From the NCBI RefSeq assembly GCF_003018115.1, contig NZ_CP027457.1: 64,000 nt of DNA. One strand, 5' to 3'. A program made the position numbers and the translations under genes. Every line of letters starts with the position of its first letter. Position 1 is the stretch's first letter. The notes beneath the pieces are model-generated. The model saw only the letters and a list, made by a program, of their open reading frames with translations. It was not told the origin of the DNA and made no database searches. The DNA comes from Escherichia coli (GTDB lineage Bacteria; Pseudomonadota; Gammaproteobacteria; Enterobacterales; Enterobacteriaceae). This document shows, one piece after another, positions 4,444 through 46,118 of this stretch.

Positions 4444-6638
4444 AATTTGATAAACCCGCAGGGGAAAACCCGATCGATCAGCTGAAGGTTGTCGGTCGTC
4501 CCCATGACCGCATCGACGGACCGCTGAAAACTACCGGCACGGCACGCTACGCCTACGAATGGCATGAAGAGGCCCCCAACGCCGCCTATGGCTATATCGT
4601 CGGTTCCGCCATTGCCAAAGGACGCCTCACCGCCCTTGATACGGACGCCGCGCAAAAAGCGCCGGGCGTACTGGCTGTCATTACCGCCAGTAACGCCGGG
4701 GCACTCGGCAAAGGCGACAAAAACACCGCCAGGCTGTTAGGCGGCCCCACTATTGAGCACTATCATCAGGCCATTGCGCTGGTAGTGGCCGAGACCTTCG
4801 AACAGGCGCGAGCGGCGGCCTCGCTGGTGCAGGCACACTATCGCCGTAATAAAGGAGCTTACTCCCTGGCGGACGAAAAACAGGCCGTCAATCAGCCGCC
4901 GGAAGACACGCCCGACAAAAACGTCGGTGACTTTGACGGGGCTTTCACCTCCGCTGCGGTGAAGATTGATGCTACCTACACGACCCCGGACCAGAGCCAT
5001 ATGGCGATGGAGCCGCATGCCTCGATGGCCGTCTGGGATGGAAATAAGCTTACTCTCTGGACCTCAAATCAGATGATTGACTGGTGCCGCACCGATCTGG
5101 CAAAAACGCTAAAAGTGCCCGTGGAGAATGTGCGTATTATCTCCCCGTATATCGGCGGAGGGTTTGGCGGCAAGCTGTTCCTGAGAAGCGATGCGCTGCT
5201 GGCAGCCCTCGCCGCCCGAGCGGTGAAACGTCCGGTTAAAGTGATGCTCCCCCGCCCCACTATTCCCAATAACACCACGCACCGCCCCGCCACCCTTCAG
5301 CACTTGCGTATCGGTGCCGACCAGAGCGGGAAAATCACCGCTATCTCACATGAAAGCTGGTCCGGAAACCTGCCCGGCGGCACGCCGGAAACGGCGGTAC
5401 AGCAAAGCGAATTACTCTACGCCGGGGCAAACCGTCATACCGGCCTGCGGCTCGCCACGCTTGATTTGCCGGAAGGGAACGCCATGCGTGCGCCCGGCGA
5501 AGCCCCCGGTCTGATGGCGCTCGAAATCGCGATCGACGAACTGGCGGAAAAAGCGGGCATCGATCCCGTCGAGTTTCGCATCCTGAATGACACTCAGGTT
5601 GACCCCGCCGACCCGACGCGCCGCTTCTCTCGCCGTCAGCTTATTGAGTGCTTGCGCACCGGAGCGGATAAATTTGGCTGGAAGCAGCGCAACGCCACAC
5701 CCGGACAGGTACGCGACGGAGAGTGGCTAGTCGGCCACGGCGTCGCGGCGGGCTTTCGCAATAATCTGCTGGAAAAATCGGGGGCTCGGGTTCACCTCGA
5801 ACCAAACGGCACCGTTACCGTGGAAACGGACATGACCGACATTGGCACCGGCAGCTACACCATTCTGGCCCAGACGGCAGCGGAAATGCTTGGCGTACCG
5901 CTGGAGCAGGTTGCGGTTCACCTCGGCGATTCCAGTTTCCCGGTTTCTGCGGGTTCTGGTGGACAATGGGGCGCGAATACCTCCACCTCCGGCGTTTACG
6001 CCGCCTGTGTGAAGCTTCGCGAAATGATTGCCTCGGCAGTCGGGTTTGATCCTGAGCAGTCGCAGTTTGCCGACGGCAAGATTACCAACGGTACCCGAAG
6101 CGCCATGCTACATGAGGCCACCGCAGGCGGCAGACTGACAGCGGAAGAGAGCATTGAATTCGGAACACTGAGCAAGGAGTACCAGCAGTCGACCTTTGCC
6201 GGGCATTTTGTGGAGGTCGGCGTGCATAGCGCGACGGGAGAAGTTCGGGTCCGGCGTATGCTCGCTGTGTGTGCTGCAGGACGCATCCTGAATCCGAAAA
6301 CTGCACGCAGCCAGGTCATTGGCGCAATGACTATGGGCATGGGCGCGGCACTGATGGAGGAGCTGGCGGTGGATGACCGTTTGGGCTACTTCGTTAATCA
6401 CGATATGGTGGGGTATGAGGTGCCGGTCCATGCGGATATCCCAAAACAGGAGGTGATTTTCCTGGATGATACCGACCCCATATCCTCCCCGATGAAGGCC
6501 AAAGGTGTCGGTGAGCTGGGCCTGTGCGGCGTGAGCGCTGCTATCGCCAACGCGGTGTATAACGCCACCGGTATTCGGGTACGCGATTATCCCATCACTC
6601 TGGATAAGCTGCTCGATAAGCTGCCGGATGTGGTTTAA
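4440..6638 (+). CDS. paoC: Aldehyde oxidoreductase molybdopterin-binding large subunit PaoC
   Basis: 732 aa; overlaps paoB stop; xanthine dehydrogenase family large subunit. Confidence 0.9.
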
Positions 6639-6647
6639 GGAGGAACA

Positions 6648-7604
6648 ATGTCATACCCGCTTTTTGATAAAGACGAACACTGGCATAAGCCAGAGCAGGC
6701 GTTTCTCACCGATGACCACCGTACCATTCTGCGCTTCGCCGTAGAGGCGCTAATGTCCGGTAAAGGAGCGGTGCTGGTGACGCTGGTGGAGATACGCGGC
6801 GGTGCGGCGCGCCCGCTCGGGGCGCAGATGGTGGTGCGCGAAGATGGTCGTTACTGCGGTTTTGTCTCTGGCGGCTGCGTGGAGGCCGCTGCCGCTTTTG
6901 AAGCGCTGGAGATGATGGGCTCAGGCCGCGATCGCGAAATTCGCTATGGCGAAGGTTCGCCGTGGTTTGACATCGTTCTGCCCTGCGGCGGTGGGATCAC
7001 GCTGACGCTCCATAAACTACGCTCGGCACAGCCTCTGCTCGCCGTGCTGAACCGCCTGGAACAGAGAAAACCGGCGGGGCTGCGCTACGATCCGCAAGCA
7101 CAATCGTTGGTGTGCCTGCCCACGCAAACCCGAACGGGCTGGAATCTCAATGGCTTTGAGGTGGGGTTCAGGCCATGCGTCAGGCTGATGATTTACGGAC
7201 GTTCTCTTGAGGCGCAGGCAACCGCGAGTCTTGCAGCAGCCACAGGCTATGACAGCCATATCTTCGATCTTTTTCCGGCCTCAGCCAGCGCTCAGATCGA
7301 TACCGACACGGCGGTCATTTTGCTGTGCCATGATCTCAACCGGGAGCTGCCAGTGTTGCAGGCCGCGCGAGAAGCAAAACCCTTTTATCTCGGCGCATTG
7401 GGCAGCTATCGAACCCACACGTTACGTCTGCAAAAGCTCCACGAGCGGGGATGGTCCAGGGAGGAGACAGCGCAAATCCGGGCACCCGTCGGGATATTCC
7501 CCAAAGCCCGGGATGCGCATACTCTGGCACTCTCCGTGCTGGCAGAAGTCGCCTCTGTACGTCTCCATCAGGAGGAGGATTCATGCCTGCCCCCGTCGTG
7601 CTGA
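6648..7604 (+). CDS. paoD: Molybdenum cofactor insertion chaperone PaoD (XdhC family)
   Basis: 318 aa; follows paoC by 9 nt with AGGAGG RBS. Confidence 0.85.
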   Translation: MSYPLFDKDEHWHKPEQAFLTDDHRTILRFAVEALMSGKGAVLVTLVEIRGGAARPLGAQMVVREDGRYCGFVSGGCVEAAAAFEALEMMGSGRDREIRYGEGSPWFDIVLPCGGGITLTLHKLRSAQPLLAVLNRLEQRKPAGLRYDPQAQSLVCLPTQTRTGWNLNGFEVGFRPCVRLMIYGRSLEAQATASLAAATGYDSHIFDLFPASASAQIDTDTAVILLCHDLNRELPVLQAAREAKPFYLGALGSYRTHTLRLQKLHERGWSREETAQIRAPVGIFPKARDAHTLALSVLAEVASVRLHQEEDSCLPPSC

Positions 7605-7663
7605 TCCTTGCGGCCGGGCGTGGAAAGCGCTTTCTCACCTCCGGGGGAAATACCATAAATTAA
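7583..7663 (+). pseudogene. 26-codon N-terminal stub of a MobA/MocA-like nucleotidyltransferase
   Basis: GAGGAGGATTC-ATG then MPAPVVLILAAGRGKRF (LAAGxGxRF motif), stop after 26 codons; overlaps paoD end. Confidence 0.4.
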
Positions 7664-35444: not shown

Positions 35445-36212
35445 GTGCCTGGTTTGAAGATTACGCTTTTGCAGCAACCACTGGTGTGGATGGATGGCCC
35501 TGCCAACCTGCGTCATTTTGATCGTCAACTGGAAGGTATTACCGGGCGCGATGTGATCGTTCTACCGGAGATGTTTACCAGCGGCTTTGCCATGGAAGCG
35601 GCAGCTTCGTCGCTAGCACAAGATGACGTAGTGAACTGGATGACAGCTAAGGCGCAGCAGTGCAATGCGCTGATTGCAGGCAGTGTTGCATTACAAACGG
35701 AGTCTGGTTCGGTTAACCGCTTTTTGCTGGTTGAGCCGGGCGGCACGGTACATTTTTATGATAAGCGTCATCTGTTCCGCATGGCAGATGAGCATCTACA
35801 TTATAAAGCGGGCAATGCGCGAGTGATTGTGGAATGGCGCGGCTGGCGTATTTTGCCGCTGGTGTGCTACGACTTACGTTTTCCTGTGTGGTCGCGCAAT
35901 CTCAACGATTATGACCTCGCCCTGTACGTCGCCAACTGGCCTGCTCCGCGCTCTCTGCACTGGCAGGCATTGCTGACGGCCCGCGCGATTGAGAATCAGG
36001 CGTATGTGGCGGGATGCAATCGCGTCGGCAGCGATGGCAACGGCTGCCATTATCGCGGTGACAGCCGGGTGATTAATCCACAGGGCGAGATTATCGCTAC
36101 TGCCGACGCGCATCAGGCAACGCGCATTGATGCGGAGCTGTCGATGGCGGTGTTAAGGGAATATCGCGATAAGTTTCCGGCATGGCGGGATGCGGATGAG
36201 TTTAGGTTGTAG
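35445..36212 (+). CDS. yafV: Omega-amidase / nitrilase-family hydrolase YafV
   Basis: GTG start giving [22 protein letters not shown]; carbon-nitrogen hydrolase E-K-C triad region. Confidence 0.9.
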
Positions 36213-36239
36213 TGAGTGGGTGTTGTGTTTAGGGCTGGG

Positions 36240-36680
36240 GAGAGTCGGGGAAGACTACGAAAGCCCGCTCTCCTGCGACCACTTTTATCATAGGAGTGTG
36301 GAAGTGCTTTTCCATCAATCGCGATGACGTCTTTGTCATTTGATGAATGGCAGTCACGCATCCAGTTAATAAAGCACTCGTGAAATTTTGCAGGACTGAT
36401 ACAGGATACAACTCTGGCAATGGTATCGTGAACAGGAATACCATTTTCAAAATCACCATATTGCTTCAAAAAATCGAGATGTGTTTCCCCAAAATCCTCT
36501 ATATCTTCCCAACCTTCTGCACCAGAAATAACGGCACAAATAGTCAACAGTAGAATATCCGATAATTTATGTTCCACGTTCCAGGCTTGTCTGTAATCGG
36601 GGATAACAGAAATATGTTCCATCAATTTTTTAAGTTCCATTTTGTTCTCCTTAATTATGTAAGGAGTATTTGATCCAGGG
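36240..36680 (-). mobile_element. Internally deleted ISAs1-family (H-repeat) element; encodes only first ~120 aa of transposase
   Basis: Near-identical to 37420..37860 (same antisense ORF on both copies); protein diverges after ...DKS; shared end motif ACGAAAGCCCGCTC at both elements. Confidence 0.75.
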
Positions 36681-36685
36681 CAAGA

Positions 36686-37822
36686 TTACGAAAGCCCGCT
36701 CCCCGCAAGGACTGACGCCAGATAGTTTCTGTCCATGGCTGCTTTTCGCATCTTACGTCTTAACCCTGCCTTGAATACCTTATCATTCGTCAAAATATTA
36801 ATAGCAATGTGCCGTATCCCTGAAAATAATTCCGCTGCATTTCCTCTTCTTATTCTGCAGTCGTCTTCATTCATTACCACGTCCAGGCGCCAGTGCAGCT
36901 TATTTTCCACGTGCCAGTGATTTCGGTTCGCTGTGGCGAACTTCTCTGCAGTTAAATCAGCAGAGCTGATATAATATCTGACCGTCATTTCGGGTTCTTT
37001 CTTTTGTTCTGCTATTATTGACCGAAAGGAGACTGCCACGCATAATTTCTTCAGCCCTTTCCATTCAAACGTGAAATCAATAAGTTCATCAGGGACATCG
37101 CAAACAATATGAAGACGGATTTCTTCTCTGCCGTGACTCTTTTCACTGATTGCGTAACTGTCATGCTCTGGATTATTTAATTCTTTCAGCGGAAATTTTT
37201 CCTCAAAGGCTTTATTTAGCCGCCCCTGGTTTCCTTTTACCGCGAATAAATAATCACCTCCCTGTTTTTGTATCTTCTCTGCAATATCTTTCTGGCAACC
37301 CATCGCATCAGTTGTGATGATTTTTCCTTTAATATCCAGCATGTTAAGAAGTTCTGGGATAGCTGTAATCTCATTAGATTTCTCATCCGTCCTGATCTGT
37401 CCGATGACCAGACTGTGCATTGTTGAGAACGCACTAATGACATGAATCGCTCCCCTGCGGCGACTCTTGTCATAAGAGTGCCGGAGCGTTTTTCCATCAA
37501 TTGCAATGACGTCTTTATCATCTGAAGAATGGCAGTCACGCATCCAGTTAATAAAGCACTCGTGAAATTTTGCAGGACTGATACAGGATACAACTCTGGC
37601 AATGGTATCGTGAACAGGAATACCATTTTCAAAATCACCATATTGCTTCAAAAAATCGAGATGTGTTTCCCCAAAATCCTCTATATCTTCCCAACCCTCT
37701 GCACCAGAAATGACGGCACAAATAGTCAACAGTAGAATATCTGACAATTTATGTTCTACTTTCCAGGCTTGTCTGTAATCGGGGATAATAGAAATATGTT
37801 CCATCAGTTTTTTAAGTTCCAT
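36686..37822 (-). mobile_element. ISAs1-family transposase (H-repeat-associated protein), complete
   Basis: 378 aa [60 protein letters not shown]... DDE transposase typical of Rhs-associated H-rpt. Confidence 0.9.
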
Positions 37823-38290
37823 TTTGTTCTCCTTATTTATGCAAGGAGTATTTGATCATATATAAGCTATGAAAAATAGTTTTAGGTAATAAGGAATATC
37901 TCAATTATTGAACATTTAGCGCGAATTATTTAGTACAAAAAGTGTACTTCTGATGACCTTTCCCTGCTCCAAAGTCTTCTAAAATCAACAATGTAGACTC
38001 TTAATTATATTTATCAACACAATAATCTATCCTATTACTATCTTGACAAGAGAGAACCGTTTTTTATTTAAATATATGATACACATCATTAAATATATAA
38101 CCATACTTTTTCATAAGGCAATCTAACTTAGCTCTTAAATCACCAAAACCCATCACACCATAACATCTAATAGCCATTGCCACACGTCACCATGGATTTA
38201 TTTCCACCTGCAATTACTTCGTCCTAACTTTAATTTAATCTCAAGAAGCATTAAGATCTCAATAGCGAGCTTAATACTTCTTGAATAATA

Positions 38291-38668
38291 TCACTCCTGA
38301 CCAAAATTTTTCCACACTAATGCATGAGACTTTGATTTGTCACCCAGAAATTTACTTACATCTTGCCAAAGTAAAGAATTGCTATCGGTCGCAGTGACTA
38401 TTGCCTCTATAAGCCCTGTAGCTACAACTGTGGCCAATTCATCATCAAGCGAGACCATACCATCTTCGACATGTTTAAATATTTTTTCTCTTTCAATATC
38501 CCCCATTTCATAAAAATTTTTTACAATCGTTTTTCCAACCTGAGAGAACAACATAACCACCGGTGGCGTTTCTGGATGCCAGTATTCATTAGCTAATGAG
38601 ACTGTCTCAGACAAAACAGTGGAAAATGATGCCATTTTTTCTATATAACTAGCAATATATTGGTTCAT
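38291..38668 (-). CDS. Putative Rhs immunity protein (RhsI), family unassigned
   Basis: 125 aa acidic ORF whose ATG shares one base with the Rhs stop (TAATG); AT-rich like the Rhs CT. Confidence 0.7.
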   Translation of the reverse strand: MNQYIASYIEKMASFSTVLSETVSLANEYWHPETPPVVMLFSQVGKTIVKNFYEMGDIEREKIFKHVEDGMVSLDDELATVVATGLIEAIVTATDSNSLLWQDVSKFLGDKSKSHALVWKNFGQE

Positions 38669-41600
38669 TACTTGCCTCCCAAAGCATTCTGTAAATCCTG
38701 AAGAACGTTTTCTGCTGCTGCTCGATCCCCTGGAGATGCTGTTGGATTCTTATCCAACCAATCCTGTAAAGCCCTTGTATAATCCTGTGCTTTCAATACA
38801 TGTCCTCTACCACCAACTTTTTCACCTGTGGCCAATTCATAACGAACAGCATCTGCTGTGCTTCCACTTCCTACTTTTGCATTTGGCCGATAAAGATCGT
38901 CTATAATATTTTTCAAATTTGAATCTGTAACGTCGGGTTTTCCCATTTTCTGTCGCAATTCATCTTTATACCGTTCATGCTGCATACGATCCCTTGCGCT
39001 ATTCTCATCTTCTGGTCCCCATCCTCCCGGGCTTCCCGTACTGCCGCCGGCCAGGCAGTTCTTCTCTTCATCCGTCAAATCCTTCCCAACATTCGGCTGA
39101 CTCCCTGACGAATTATCATTCTCATGTGGGCTATCTAAAGGACAACTACTGGTCCAGTAACACATTTCAGCCTGAGAATTTATTAACTGCCCATCGCTCA
39201 GAGCCTTCCCGGCACGCCCATCATTAGCGAGAAGGTCATATCCCATTGGCCCAGCGACCACAGCCATTGCTCCAAGAGCAGGGGCAGCAGACGCCATAGC
39301 CGCCGTGACTGCATCAAAAGTCGCCGCCCCACCCGAAAGTAACGCCCCCCCAAATTCTGTTCCTGTTACTGTTGTGGCAGAACCAAGAACCAGTGTCTCA
39401 CCAGACAACCCAAGAGGATCCCCCCGCTGCACCGGGTTCAGCGGATACGCATACAGGTTCCATCCCCCCTTCAGCCCAATGGGATCCTGGGTGATATAGC
39501 GTCCCTGCAACGGATCGTAGTACCGGTTCCGGTTATAGTACAGCCCCGACTCCTCATCATACTGCTGCCCCGGCAGACGGAGTGACTGTTGAAGGTGCTG
39601 CGCGCTGGTTTCGCCCAGCAGGTTTCCCCACTCGTCATACTCCCCCTGCCACGCCGTTTCCCCTTCCGGGCTGATGAGCGCCAGCGGCAGTCCCCGGTGG
39701 TCGCAGTGGTAAAGATGAAGTTTCCTCTCCGGGATGTATTCCGCCTCCAGCTGTGCGGCCATCTGCTCCGCCGTCAGCCCGCACTGCGCAAGCCATGCCT
39801 CACTCTCCGCACTCACCGCTCCCGCGCGCAGTTCCCGCTCCAGCCTCCCCAGCATCACCGACAGCTCCGCCGGTAGCGTCACACCCGTGTCCTCCTGCAA
39901 CACCTCCGCCAGGCTCCGGTGCCGCGCCTTCGCCTGTTCGCCATTCTCTGTTTCGATTCTCAGGAGCGGCGTGAAGCTCCCCGGCTGGTATACCGTCTGG
40001 ATACGCGTGGTGCCGGTCTGTATCGTCGTCAGCCTGTCACCGTCCCACCCGTACCATGTCACCTCCGGTTTACGCGACAGCGACATCCACCCCGTCAGGT
40101 CACGCTCCCGCCGCCATACCCGTTTTCCCGTCCGGCGGCCCAGCGGGTCATAGAGGTACCGGCTCTCCACCTGTGGTTCGCCGTGCTGTATCCGCGTGTA
40201 GAACACCAGGCGGTGCTGGCTGTCGTAGTGATAGTGGTGGGTGCGCTCGTCGTGCATCCGGATAACCCCTTCCGGGATACGGTCCGTCTTCTCCGCCAGC
40301 CTGCCGTATTCATCGTGGCGGTAGACATAGTGCGCATCCTCCGCGATGCGGTTATCCGGCCACGCCGTGAGCGTGCTGTCCGGGTGCAGTTCCGGGTCCG
40401 GCAGCCGGTTTCCTGCCGGGTCCGTCGCATACGGGATATCAATGTCCAGGTTCGCTGCCGTGGTGTGGACGCCCGTCAGCCTTCCCGTGCCGCTGTAACG
40501 GTACTCCCGGCTCTCCTGCGGGCCGCTGATGCGGATTAGCTGTCCGTTGTCGTTCCACGTATACTCACGGTCAAGCTGCGGAAGGTTCAGGTGCCTGCTC
40601 CGGAGCTGGCCGCTGGTATTCCAGGCGGTGGCAAGTTCATATGCCTCCCCGCCGAAGCTGCGGGCCGTCTCACGGTGCAGCCGGTCCCGCGTGTACTCGA
40701 CCAGCGGCGTTCCGCCCAGCTTCATCCCCGCAAGATAACCGCTGCCATACGTCAGCCACTCCACCGGCGGCAGACCGTCCGGCTCCTGACGGGTCGCCAG
40801 CCCCTGTTCGCTGTACGCATGCCCCGTCTCATGCTCCCACAGCATCTCCCCCGTCTCCGGGTTCTCCACCGTCTGCCGTTCGCCCGTCAGGCGGCCTTTA
40901 TCGTCATAGCCGTAGTGGACCGACACGCGGTGGCCTTCACTGGTATGGCTGAGGGTGGTTAACCACCCGTGCTCATCATACTGCCACTGCTCTGCCGGGT
41001 CGCCGTTCACCGTCCGGTGCGTGATGCGGTCCGACGCATCGTAGTGCCAGAGGGTGATAAGCCCCTCGTCTTCACTCTGCGTGAGTTTTCCGGTCAGGTC
41101 ATAGTGGTAACGTTGCGTCCGGCCGTCAAAACCGCGCTGTTCAGTCAGCCTGTCCACCGGGTCATACCGGAACGTGGACTGGCTGCCGTTCTCGTTGGTC
41201 AGCACGGTGATGCGCCCGGCAGCGTCATACCCCATGCTGCGCGTAAGACCGCCTTCCGTCACACTCACCGGACGCCCGTGTTTATCATATTCGATGGTGC
41301 TGCGTTTACCGTCCGGTGATATCGTTGCTGTCAGGTCGCCTGCGGCGCTGTACTCATAACGGATTTCACGCCCCTGCGCATCCTTCTGACTGACCAGTTG
41401 CCCACGCGGGTTATAACTGCTGTAAGTGCTGATGCCTTCCTCCCGGTGAACGGCGATTTGTTGACCGTACCAGTCATACTCATACCGCGTCGTGTACCCC
41501 GAGCAGTCCGTGAAGGCCCGAAGCTGACCGTACCGGTTTCGCGTTATTCTCCGCGTCACCCCGGTTCCGTCTTCCACCGCGCCGGGCAGGCTACTGCGGG

Positions 41601-43173
41601 GGGAGTCATAAAACCAGCGCGTAATGTTACCGTTGCGCGAGGTCTCTTCTGCCAGTCGGCCCTGACGGTCATATTTCCGGTTGCTGCGTAAACCATCCGG
41701 ATATGTCACTGAAGTCAGTTGCAACTGGCTGTTGTAACCATACCGTACCGTCCTGCCGTCCGGCAGTATCACTGAAGTCAGCTTTCCAGACGCCATATGC
41801 AGCCGGTACTCCGTCCGCCGCCCCGCCGCATCCGTCTGCGCCTTCAGCCTCCCCGCCTCATCATACTCGCTGCGGGTGATGCTCCCGTCCGCATGTTCCT
41901 TCTTCACCACACGCTTCAGGCCACCTTCGCCCTCCGTGTACAGCACCTCCCGCCGGTTCAGGCTGTCCGTGATGGTCACACGGTCCTGCCCGTACTCAAA
42001 GCGGTAGTCCAGCCCCTCCGGGTTGACCTGTTCTGTCACCCGACCGGTATCATCATACCGGTAGCGGCTCTCCGGCCTCCCTGCATAATGGTGCGCCACC
42101 ATCCGCCCGGCGTGCTGCACATCATAAGTAAACCCGCGCACCTGCGTCCCGCTGCGGTCATACACCGCCCGCAGTTCTCCGCTGGCCGTGTACGTGTAGC
42201 GCGCCAGCGGCGCAGTCGGCTGTTCATCCGGGTATGCCGGGTCGTGTGTCAGCCACACCGCCTCCAGCCGGATACCGTTATCGGCACCGTACTCTGTACC
42301 GGCGGGCAGCGTGTCGGGGAAAGCTGAAGAAAAGGAAGAAGAGGAAACAGAACGGGGACTGGCCGGGGAAGATAAGGAAGACTCGCGCTGTTTACGGAAG
42401 GCTTCCGCCCGCTGCGCCTGTGTGGTCAGCGCCAGGTGAAAACGGCGGCCCGCGCCGTCCGTCACCCCCGTCACCGCGCCCGCCACGTCACCCTCCGCCG
42501 CCCTGTGAAAGGCCAGCGTCCGACCAAAGCCATCCACCACGCCCGTCAGCACCCGGTATGCGGGCGGCTCCGGCGGCAGCACCTCGTCCGCCTCCGGCAC
42601 CCGCTCCGGCCAGCTGAGCACCAGCCACTGCCCGGTTGTGCTGACAGCCATCATATAGGTGTGTGGACTCAGACGGACCGCTTCCGGCAGCGCCCGCCAG
42701 AGCCGGGCCAGCGGGTGGCCTTTGTGTTGTTTCAGCACCCCACCCCTTGCCAGCCAGAGTGACTCGCTGCGGCTGTAGCTTATCTCGCCGGGAAACAGCG
42801 GCTCAAAGTGAATGCTCCTGCCGCCGTTGTCGTTGAGTATCAGTTCCCGCTCATGAATCTGTAAGCGGATATCAAAGGGGGCTTTCCAGCCGGGGCCAAA
42901 CACCCCCACCGGCGCGGGCGTCCTGGTCCGGTAACTGCTGTAGGCACGGGAAAGAATGAACGGCAGCGGGCCGGGCAGCGCAAGGTCCGTCTCGCCCGGC
43001 AGCACCTTCGCACCCAGTAGCGGGTTCACCGGGTTAGCATAGGTAATCCCTCCCGGACACACCGAGCAGGCCACTCCCGTCGGCGCACCTATCAGCACCC
43101 CCGCTGAACCCTGCACAATATCCAGTCCCTTGCGGGTCATATCACCCTGCCGCGCCGCCGGTTTTCCGCCCAT
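38668..43173 (-). CDS. rhs: Rhs-family polymorphic toxin: N-terminal PAAR-like region, YD-repeat core, variable C-terminal toxin domain
   Basis: 1501 aa; N-term [12 protein letters not shown]...[10 protein letters not shown]; many YD repeats; core ends [27 protein letters not shown]; ~245 aa CT encoded at 38671..39405. Confidence 0.9.
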
Positions 43174-43248: not shown

Positions 43249-45390
43249 TCAAAATTGCCGCATATCCGGCATTCCGGGGGGTAAATCTTTCGGCACAGGC
43301 GCATCCGGTACAGGTTGTGTGGCACCACAGTTCCAGTTAATCACCGGCGCATCACCGTTCACATCCGACTCCCCTTCCAGATGAATGTGCGTACCATTAA
43401 GAAATATGCTTCCGTCCTTCGTCAGCACCAGCCTTGCCTTACCACAGCAGAGTTCAAGATGCTCACCGGCAGAATAAACTGCTGTTTGTCCGGTGTTTTC
43501 CTTCATCGTCTTGCCCACCGAGAAGGTGACGTTATTCCCTACATTGACGCTGTAGCCCATTCCCACCATCAGTGATTTATGCAGCCCTACCTGTGAGGAC
43601 TGCAACAACGCCACCGAGGTATTCATAATGCCGCCTACCGTCGTCTGATACGCCACACCCACCGTCAGCGCACGAATGATCCCCACCTTTTCAACCTGGT
43701 TTGATCCCACTTTGATAATCTGGTTACTGCCCACCGTTTCCACCTGGTTGACACCAACCGTCTGTATCTGATTAACGCCAATGTTCTGGATCTGGTTATT
43801 GGTAACGGTGATCGCCTGGTTGTTACCTATTTTTTCGGCATGGTTGTTTATCACATCAGTGGTGCGGTTATTCAGCACCTCGGTGTTCATGTTCTTCTGC
43901 GCGTGGATGTAGACCTGTTCTTTCCCTGTCGCATCGTCAAACTTCAGTTCATTAAACCCGCTGCCCTTATAGGTTTTCGAACGAATGGTCATCTGCGTCT
44001 TTGTTCCCGGCAGGCTGCCGGGTGTGCGGTTTTCCTGGTGGTAGGTGCGCCCCATAATGATCGGCTGGTCCGGATCGCCGTTGAGGAAGTCCACAATCAC
44101 CTCCTGACCCACACGCGGTATCGCCAGGTTACCAAACCCGGTGCCTGCCCACGCCTGTGCCACACGGATCCAGCATGAACTGTCCTGGTTTGACGGGTTA
44201 TAGCGGTCCCAGTTAAATTTCACCCGCACGCGACCATGTTCGTCGCAGAAGATTTCCTCGCCTGCCGGTCCCGTCACGACGGCGCTCTGCGGGCCATCCA
44301 CCAGCGGTTTCAGCAACGGCTGTGGTCGCCATGTTCTGTCTGCCGGTATTACCGCAAAATGGTTATCCAGCGTGGTGCCTGAACCCCTGCGTCCCGGTAC
44401 CGCCTGCGGCTGTTCGCCGTGAAGATCGCTCGCCACCACCTGCCATTCCCGGTTCAGGTTCGCCTGCGGATGCCCCGTCAGCACAATTCGCCGTCCCGGC
44501 CATATCTCCGGCGAACGGCTTGTTCCGCGCGCCACTTCTGCGTTGTTTCGCCAGCCATCCATCTGCCAGCGGGCAAAGTTCTGCCCGTGGGCACCCTTGA
44601 AACGTCCGGGGTAGTCATACACTTCATACTGTGTGCGCTGGTAATCCTGGTACTGGCCTTCCTGATCAAAACGCCCTGCCCAGCCGGGTCGTTTAAAGGT
44701 GTAGTCTTTGGTCACCACGGAAGAAGGGCGGATTTGTGCGCTGTAGCGAAACTGGCTGATGCAGAGGGTGCTTACCTCGGTACGGGTGTTCGGATTCCAG
44801 GGGATCTCAAAGGACTCCGGCAGATAACGCACGGTATCGCACAGGACCAGGCTCTGGTCGGTACTTTTTTGCGCGTGCTCCTCATAAAAGAAGATGCCTT
44901 CCTCCGCCGCCATCCGGCACAGGAAATCGTAATCAGTCTCACCGTACTGGACACAAAACTCACGGGAAGGATGCGGTTCACTGAACAGCGGACTCCACTC
45001 GGTCACCCCGTTTTCCTGCAATATCGTGCCGAGGATGCTTTTGATGTCCTCGTTCTGGAAGATACGGAAGTTCTGGCGCAGCCCTGTGCGCCACAGCGGC
45101 GGGCATACCTTCATGCTGTACAGCTTCTGGTTTTTGTCGTTCTCCCCCAGTTCAAACCAGGTCACCACACCTTTCACCCGGCGCTGTACGTCATCGCCCT
45201 GCCATATCGTCAGGTAGGCCATTTTGTCGAGGATCTGCTGGAATTCAAGGGAGAGAAACTGCTGGCTGACCAGAGAGAGAGCGAGGGAAAAAAGCGAAGA
45301 GAGTGACTGGTTCAGATGAAAGGAGACCACCGCAAAAGCATCCGGTGGCAGGCCGTCCACTTCCAGCGTGAAACGTAATCCGGTTGACAT
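43249..45390 (-). CDS. vgrG: Type VI secretion spike protein VgrG
   Basis: 713 aa; gp27/gp5-like VgrG; 75 bp upstream of rhs. Confidence 0.9.
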   Translation of the reverse strand: MSTGLRFTLEVDGLPPDAFAVVSFHLNQSLSSLFSLALSLVSQQFLSLEFQQILDKMAYLTIWQGDDVQRRVKGVVTWFELGENDKNQKLYSMKVCPPLWRTGLRQNFRIFQNEDIKSILGTILQENGVTEWSPLFSEPHPSREFCVQYGETDYDFLCRMAAEEGIFFYEEHAQKSTDQSLVLCDTVRYLPESFEIPWNPNTRTEVSTLCISQFRYSAQIRPSSVVTKDYTFKRPGWAGRFDQEGQYQDYQRTQYEVYDYPGRFKGAHGQNFARWQMDGWRNNAEVARGTSRSPEIWPGRRIVLTGHPQANLNREWQVVASDLHGEQPQAVPGRRGSGTTLDNHFAVIPADRTWRPQPLLKPLVDGPQSAVVTGPAGEEIFCDEHGRVRVKFNWDRYNPSNQDSSCWIRVAQAWAGTGFGNLAIPRVGQEVIVDFLNGDPDQPIIMGRTYHQENRTPGSLPGTKTQMTIRSKTYKGSGFNELKFDDATGKEQVYIHAQKNMNTEVLNNRTTDVINNHAEKIGNNQAITVTNNQIQNIGVNQIQTVGVNQVETVGSNQIIKVGSNQVEKVGIIRALTVGVAYQTTVGGIMNTSVALLQSSQVGLHKSLMVGMGYSVNVGNNVTFSVGKTMKENTGQTAVYSAGEHLELCCGKARLVLTKDGSIFLNGTHIHLEGESDVNGDAPVINWNCGATQPVPDAPVPKDLPPGMPDMRQF

Positions 45391-45599: not shown

Positions 45600-46118
45600 T
45601 TATGCTTCCAGCGGTGCGCGCCAGTCGTCGGCACCGGAGGTGCCAGATTTGACGTGTTCCCATTCAATTTTGCGGTAGGCCAGTGAAACTTCGAGCAACT
45701 GGGTGAACTCGCGTTTCGCCGGGTCCTGGCAATGCGGCATATGCAGTTTCATATCGACAATCGTCGAATCAGTCAGGCGGGTAGTGAAATAATGCTCCTG
45801 TTTGCCTTCCACAGAGGTACGCCACCAGTGAAGTTCAGTGGTTGGCAGCATTTCGCCGGAGGCCAGTGCGTTGTACATCAGCGGAACCGCTTTGTTCAGC
45901 GCCACGGTAAAAATGAAAGGCTTGTGAGCACGCTGACCCGCAGGCTGACCGGACTGAGGATCGGTCGGGACAGTAACGTTATGCAGGAATTCCTGCACCA
46001 GCATCTCGTCTTCGTGCCCCTGCACATAGATGTTGCCGACAGAATCAGCGGTAAATGCACCTGCAGTAATATTTCCCTGGGTCTGACCAGTGATGGAGAT
46101 ATAACACGGTGTTGGCAT
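45600..46118 (-). CDS. hcp: Type VI secretion tube protein Hcp (TssD)
   Basis: 172 aa MPTPCYISITGQTQGNITAGAFTADSVGNIYVQGHEDEMLVQ. Confidence 0.9.
   Translation of the reverse strand: MPTPCYISITGQTQGNITAGAFTADSVGNIYVQGHEDEMLVQEFLHNVTVPTDPQSGQPAGQRAHKPFIFTVALNKAVPLMYNALASGEMLPTTELHWWRTSVEGKQEHYFTTRLTDSTIVDMKLHMPHCQDPAKREFTQLLEVSLAYRKIEWEHVKSGTSGADDWRAPLEA

Follow-up and report, generated by a model that had tools for sequence, protein, structure and literature searches.

Downstream of a full-length Rhs toxin gene in Escherichia coli, a short open reading frame (ORF) raises the question of whether it is what remains of an immunity gene or a product of chance in AT-rich DNA. The ORF lies on the minus strand of the window, by which we mean the whole 64,000-nucleotide stretch of DNA that was analysed. 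It occupies positions 38064–38177, opens with an ATG at 38177, encodes the 37-residue peptide MAIRCYGVMGFGDLRAKLDCLMKKYGYIFNDVYHIFK and closes with a TAA at 38066–38064. Re-reading of the sequence returned the same coordinates and peptide as the original prediction, and the setting described there also proved right: the ORF sits in an AT-rich spacer between the Rhs immunity gene and an H-repeat element. This spacer (37967–38290) comprises 324 nt with a G+C content of 30% (53% in the window overall). A GTG at 38183 could serve as an alternative start and would lengthen the ORF by two codons, to 39. An ATG ORF of at least 37 codons was obtained in 22% of mononucleotide shuffles of the spacer. 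The length alone is therefore uninformative, and the case for the ORF being more than a chance product comes from homology instead. RefSeq PGAP left the ORF uncalled in every genome inspected, and in some GenBank submissions the peptide, of 37 or 39 aa, is listed as a hypothetical protein (EGW98411.1, EMZ87469.1). A stretch of 901 nt surrounding the ORF was 100% identical to several complete E. coli genomes. An Rfam scan of 37700–38500 gave no match, and promoter-like sites were not above the shuffle expectation (7 vs. 5.5).

The Rhs toxin gene (38668–43173, minus strand) encodes 1501 aa and is annotated by PGAP as 'RHS element core protein' in matching genomes. It is directly followed, with a stop/start overlap, by a gene of 125 aa (38291–38668, minus strand), which is a PGAP 'hypothetical protein' (WP_001077738/7) with a weak, sub-threshold match to DUF7674 (E = 9e-4). 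The 125-aa gene travels with the same Rhs tip in contigs L005, L006, L017, and L021, and it is presumed to be the cognate immunity gene of this tip. The toxin domain (38671–39003, approximately the last 110 aa) showed no Pfam, NCBIfam or PDB sequence match. Residues 78–179 of the last 249 aa of the Rhs protein (approximately 38881–39186) weakly resembled 5J5V_B (E = 2.5e-7), and the region resembled lies N-terminal of the toxin domain in CdiA tRNA-nuclease tips. This similarity suggests that Rhs and CdiA tips may share a pre-toxin or entry module. Upstream of the Rhs gene, on the same strand, there are ORFs of 713 aa (43249–45390) and 172 aa (45600–46118), which, from size and position only, are likely to be VgrG and Hcp, respectively. 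T6SS genes are annotated beside the same block in matching genomes.

On its other side, the spacer is bounded by an ISEc1/H-repeat element of 1291 bp (36676–37966, minus strand), and we take 1291 bp to be the reference length of H-rpt. Its 378-aa transposase (36686–37822) belongs to the ISAs1 family and is annotated by PGAP as 'ISAs1-like element ISEc1 family transposase'. The ends of the element were set by alignment to other copies and by reading CAGGG from the sequence at both ends, in inverted orientation; a repeat search of the window did not report these short terminal repeats. A 1292-nt alignment to the ISEc1 copy of contig L003 ended at 37966, and the widespread H-rpt matches stopped at approximately 37966–37971. 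In length (about 1.29 kb), terminal CAGGG and 378-aa ISAs1-family transposase, the element agrees with ISEc1/H-rpt. A partial second ISEc1 copy (36113–36675, minus strand; partial ISAs1 transposase according to PGAP) abuts the full copy in tandem, shares a 300-nt direct repeat with it at 93% identity, and adjoins yafV; the 5′ leader of the partial copy is interrupted where the full copy ends.

When the spacer was compared by blastn with 5,426 complete E. coli genomes, two classes of matches emerged. The first consisted of 132 near-identical copies. The second comprised 32 genomes that matched window positions 37990–38182 at 84%, and the matched DNA lay under an annotated gene of 119 aa (WP_000020701.1), labelled 'CDI system immunity component' in one record. 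The alignment to this gene was ungapped and in frame, and it passed the stop codon of the ORF for approximately 33 more codons, to 37969; in L003, positions 5980–6193 showed this ungapped in-frame homology at 83.6%. With the 119-aa gene as query, a protein search gave 55 homologues, approximately 117–120 aa long, from Escherichia, Yersinia, Serratia, Pantoea, Pectobacterium, Klebsiella, and Snodgrassella, nearly all of which carry PF28203 or are fragments. The family name was taken from the precomputed annotations of these homologues. Pfam-A and NCBIfam scans of the intact 119-aa homologue gave no match, PF28203 being newer than the Pfam copy scanned. The closest allele was P0006, an intact protein of 117 aa that starts with MAIRCYGVMGFGDLRAKLDCLMKKYGYIFNDVYHIF and carries a precomputed match to PF28203 ('CDI_Immunity_Comp'); residues 1–36 of the 37 in the ORF are identical to it.

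A profile was built from 38 full-length PF28203 members, with P0006 left out. It matched the ORF with E = 1.8e-6 and the 72-codon conceptual translation with E = 3e-18, and the segment after the stop matched by itself (E = 3.4e-4). The conserved N-terminal residues of the family (I3, C5, Y6, L14, L18, F29, and Y33) are all kept in the ORF, and GTG 38183 of the window aligns with the ATG start of the family members. The profile had no second match in any of the six reading frames of the whole window, which shows that the last third of the gene is missing there. The ORF, which corresponds to codons 1–37 of a PF28203 cdiI-type immunity gene, is the 5′ (N-terminal) third of a gene and not a 3′ scrap. 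The real feature extends beyond the 37-codon ORF, as a pseudogene of 217 nt (37967–38183, minus strand) that retains approximately 72 of 117–119 codons and whose 3′ end is cut by the ISEc1 terminus. The remnant is similar in sequence to PF28203, but it lacks the complete domain, a single-domain ORF of approximately 117–120 aa, owing to two stops and the ISEc1 cut at about codon 72. On the strength of these alignments, it is best described as a pseudogene derived from PF28203, not as a member protein.

The role of the intact family can be approached through Pantoea. In five genomes of this genus (L008–L012), the PF28203 gene starts 10 nt after a CdiA of 3,800–3,960 aa with the architecture TPS, Fil_haemagg_2, PT-VENN, and a PF18451 'CdiA_C' tip; in one genome, it follows an orphan PF18451 tip instead of a full CdiA. 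The Pantoea tip is homologous to the CdiA-CT of B. pseudomallei 1026b (PDB 4G6V_A, E = 4.6e-37), and 4G6V is a complex of a PD-(D/E)XK tRNase with its immunity protein (PMC9086364). The AlphaFold model of P0006 had a mean pLDDT of 93. Its top fold match in the PDB was CdiI-1026b (4G6V_B), with TM values of 0.75/0.85, an rmsd of 2.0 Å and a probability of 1.00, and all other fold matches had E > 0.08. The two proteins share only about 18% sequence identity; a PDB sequence search with the intact homologue found nothing at E ≤ 1, and CdiI-1026b surfaced only in the fold search. The alpha/beta fold of CdiI-1026b is thus seen in the predicted structure of the intact allele P0006 only. Because toxin and immunity protein point independently to one solved pair, the family can be assigned as CdiI-type immunity, predicted to neutralise a 1026b-type PD-(D/E)XK tRNase tip (PF18451) in CDI loci.

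The position directly after a cognate PF18451 tip, occupied by the gene in the five Pantoea genomes, is not what we found in the window. The Pantoea PF18451 tip, used as a tblastn query, had no match in the window, L003, L005 or the other E. coli loci, and the Rhs tip of the window had no PF18451 match. In L003, the 164-aa gene that precedes the intact allele was considered as a PF18451 toxin and was ruled out by a negative profile scan and tblastn. As no PF18451-like toxin was detected in the window or in the loci with intact alleles, the PF28203 gene is an orphan in E. coli and E. fergusonii. In four contigs of the latter species (L013–L016), the intact gene (6001–6360) stands isolated: it follows an NGO_1070-like gene, lies between gss and a YafT-family gene, and is remote from rhs and cdi genes. 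Alleles of PF28203 that are truncated or frameshifted (P0019, P0020, and P0049) are also common, and the family seems to be gained and lost often. The 90%-identity cluster that contains the 37- and 39-aa peptides (P0056 and P0057) also holds P0059, a protein of 484 aa. This was rejected as a relative: it is an unrelated DDE transposase on unrelated contigs, placed there by a database clustering artefact.

These results separate two ideas that had been joined in the original prediction of a fragment of a displaced immunity gene. That the ORF belongs to an immunity gene was borne out by the profile matches to the ORF and to its 72-codon extension, and by the 36 residues identical to the intact P0006. 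The absence of homologs, named beforehand as the outcome that would speak against the idea, was not what the searches returned: they gave both profile matches and an intact allele. Displacement as the partner of an earlier Rhs tip did not hold, as the family pairs with a CDI tRNase tip (PF18451).

The history of the remnant can be traced by comparison with L005, a contig of 1,361 bp that carries, in the order of the window, the end of the Rhs tip, the 125-aa gene, a 107-nt gap, and the intact gene of P0006. In this arrangement, the ATG start of the intact gene lies 113 nt downstream of the Rhs tip and the 125-aa immunity gene. Window and L005 differ by 4 mismatches per 1000 nt over 39069–38070 (99.6% identity) and by 23 mismatches per 101 nt over 38069–37969 (77% identity). 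The DNA at 38070–38183 is identical at 113 of 114 positions, and the non-coding gap between the 125-aa gene and the remnant (38184–38290, minus strand) at 107 of 107. Since the non-coding gap is equally conserved, the near-identity upstream of 38070 reflects recent shared ancestry and not selection on the ORF. The gap holds the native upstream region of the PF28203 gene, in which a weak GGTGA located 9 nt before the ATG is the sole Shine–Dalgarno-like element.

The step in identity (38069/38070) falls where the ORF ends, and the first differences change GAA-CCA to AAA-TAA. Such a jump to 23% divergence can be read as the signature of a recombination joint. Beyond it, the decayed segment (37967–38069, minus strand; codons 37 to about 71) contains a first stop at 38066–38064 (CCA to TAA) and a second one, in frame, at 38003–38001 (TCA to TAA). 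Two conserved residues, the invariant E68 and the nearly invariant D52, have been replaced. Relative to the intact alleles, this block has a pN of 0.19 and a pS of 0.26–0.32. For the same codons, the intact alleles compared among themselves gave a pS of 0.046 and a pN of 0.025, at approximately 97% identity. Taken together, positions 37967–38183 are best interpreted as what is left of an orphan cdiI-type immunity gene: a pseudogene, mosaic in structure and truncated.

The block formed by the Rhs tip, the 125-aa gene, the stub, and the H-repeat (36676–39350) was at least 99% identical at two chromosomal sites, when L006 and L017 were compared with L001, L018, and the window. One site, which is that of the window, adjoins yafV-ivy-fadE and the T6SS cluster, and the other adjoins pptA-yddH-nhoA, the classical rhsE position. 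The presence of the same block at both sites indicates that the mosaic joint predates its spread between Rhs loci. The N-terminal sub-domain of the Rhs tip (39004–39350) was 99.7% identical to an orphan tip fragment that abuts ISEc1 in further E. coli genomes, and the toxin tails then differ.

We consider it highly probable that the ORF represents a 5′ stub, intact in appearance, of a dead orphan cdiI gene of the PF28203 family, born of cassette exchange, from which no immunity is to be expected. The ancestral arrangement would have been an intact orphan cdiI gene after the Rhs tip and the 125-aa gene, as on L005. In the window, codons 1–37 alone would derive from a recent L005-type allele. 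From codon 37–38 on, the sequence would belong to an old copy of this gene that has decayed neutrally, carries two stops, and is cut at approximately codon 72 by ISEc1/H-rpt. The likeliest course is homologous recombination, in which an incoming block made up of the Rhs tip, the 125-aa immunity gene, and the orphan cdiI took the place of the resident one. Its downstream crossover would have fallen inside the 5′ part of the resident cdiI remnant, by then both decayed and truncated by the insertion sequence. Lying between the selected immunity gene and the H-repeat, the stub would persist by hitch-hiking. An exchange between shared flanks can be seen elsewhere: in L003, an orphan Rhs-tip fragment (7307–7653), 99.7% identical to window 39004–39350, is followed by an unrelated toxin tail, a 164-aa gene, and then an intact PF28203 gene.

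The alternatives concern the ancestry of the ORF, the direction of the exchange and the fate of the stub. A chance ORF in an AT-rich non-coding spacer, with no genic ancestry, would agree with the frequency at which shuffles reach such a length and with the lack of Pfam or NCBIfam matches for the family in the libraries scanned. It leaves unexplained the 55 homologues that are PF28203 members or fragments, the identity of 36 of 36 residues to P0006, the profile matches with E values from 1.8e-6 to 3e-18, and the preserved synteny with L005, by which it is refuted; we give it practically no credence. The suggestion that the ORF may be non-coding accordingly falls in the sense of lacking genic ancestry, and it remains a fair description of function, as the remnant is very probably non-functional as it stands. 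As for direction, a mosaic or fully decayed gene could be ancestral, the 3′ part of the pseudogene having been replaced in the L005 allele from an E. fergusonii-like allele. The C-terminal 46 residues of P0006 are indeed those of P0013 from E. fergusonii, and the family itself is mosaic: L005 and L003 differ by a pS of 0.21 over codons 1–36 and of only 0.046 over codons 37–70. Moreover, the L005 type is found on one short contig only, and the mosaic in at least 121 genomes. However, a decaying whole gene would be left with damage in its 5′ third as well, on the scale seen in the 101 nt that follow (23% divergence, two stops). This third instead fits the family profile, has its conserved N-terminal residues intact, and is identical to L005 at 113 of 114 positions. 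We therefore regard the opposite direction as unlikely, though still worth keeping in mind. A decayed 3′ segment joined to an equally decayed 5′ part was found at no locus among the 132 E. coli copies and 11 metagenome contigs; the latter were the matches of an exact 25-mer scan for a parent of the decayed segment, and all carried the same mosaic. The direction of recombination is something we infer, because every copy of the decayed segment is already mosaic. The identity of the ORF as the stub of a dead immunity gene is the same under either direction.

A functional gene for a small protein of 37–39 aa, with partial toxin binding or a regulatory or membrane role, is the remaining alternative. 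The peptide could be made, as the native start region is kept (107 of 107 positions upstream) and no terminator-like site is predicted on the minus strand between the immunity gene and the ORF; the GenBank hypothetical-protein entries also speak for it. Three polymorphisms occur in the ORF among 14 copies, one at 38118 and two alleles at 38148, and all are synonymous third-position changes. Taken at face value, they hint at constraint (p of about 0.01–0.02), in tiny numbers. The G state at 38148 goes with an L005-like haplotype at 38359 and 38453 and may thus have come down from intact alleles. Substitutions are no less dense in the ORF than in its flanks, and since all copies are at least 98.8% identical, their conservation carries almost no information. 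Structurally, the stub spans the modelled elements E2–7, H11–24, H26–29, and E33–35 of the P0006 fold. As it covers only strand 1, helices 1–2, and strand 2 of a compact, single-domain alpha/beta fold of nine elements, no immunity is expected from it. The end of the ORF falls exactly at the start of a block of unrelated age, so the length of the ORF was set by the recombination joint and not by selection. The weak GGTGA and the missing PGAP call likewise count against function.

Other genomes have also dispensed with the ORF. In 11 complete E. coli genomes, a 109-bp deletion (38043–38151) flanked by a 3-nt ATC microhomology (L006 5001–5003) removes codons 10–37; the one deletion locus inspected (L006) was at the pptA/rhsE site. 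Independent IS1 insertions were found at 38070|38069, 38109|38110, and approximately 38250 (L021, L007, and L019), two of which (38070 and 38110) fall inside the ORF. One IS1 in this set stands exactly at the mosaic breakpoint 38070|38069, and the contig there terminates with the IS1 terminal repeat GGTGATGCTGCCAACTTACTGATTTAGTG. The clustering of IS1 is probably due to a preference for AT-rich targets. In related loci, the H-repeat lies 79 nt after the immunity gene and the remnant is missing altogether. This was observed in L020 (3999–4075 vs. window 38216–38290), downstream of a related 125-aa gene, and in many E. coli genomes that form a match class at 86.7% identity. Because the terminus of this type abuts 79 nt after the immunity gene, the H-repeat junctions differ between Rhs-tip lineages. 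A small-protein gene is very improbable. We rate equally low the specific versions in which the stub would be a translated 37–39-aa peptide under purifying selection, probably co-transcribed with the Rhs immunity gene, or a homology 'landing pad' for cassettes. Were the landing pad real, recombination of the Rhs core with the stub or H-repeat would serve to capture new Rhs-tip/immunity cassettes.

The stub of a dead immunity gene, our preferred reading, has precedents. Behind cdi and rhs genes, orphan toxin/immunity modules and fragments are typically found, often disrupted by insertion sequences (Poole et al. 2011, PMC3150448; Jackson et al. 2009, PMC2935791; PMC3032704). The remnant resembles them in lying in AT-rich DNA, distal to a full-length toxin gene and its immunity gene. 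It differs in that no orphan toxin-tip fragment precedes it, only the 107-nt gap, as is also the case for the intact gene in L005, and in being of the CDI type by family, yet located in an Rhs/T6SS locus. The orphan cdiI genes of Poole et al. (2011; PMC3150448) were expressed and protective, whereas the remnant is a pseudogene. In comparison with CdiI-1026b and PF28203, the parent gene of the stub falls within the family by sequence and the model of the intact allele fits 4G6V_B; however, the remnant keeps only 37 intact or 72 degenerate codons of approximately 117, and the cognate PF18451 toxin is missing from the window and from the E. coli loci examined. An H-repeat stands at the distal end of classical Rhs elements (PMC3032704). 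The 1291-bp element with its 378-aa transposase occupies the same position here, although in the window it forms the 3′ boundary of a pseudogene, and in the related loci it follows the immunity gene after 79 nt.

The feature thus adds one more decayed orphan immunity gene to the debris that is commonplace behind E. coli Rhs toxin genes. Features of this kind have been described since 2009–2011, and it matters little by itself. A candidate small ORF can be struck off, and the GenBank 'hypothetical protein' entries for the peptide are pseudogene stubs. The base-pair-sharp joint would offer a concrete example of where the crossover of a cassette exchange falls in Rhs elements. For the family, the locus indicates that PF28203, a CDI-type immunity family, lives as a toxin-less orphan inside the Rhs/T6SS loci of E. 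coli, which agrees with the view that bacteria gather immunity genes from different delivery systems.
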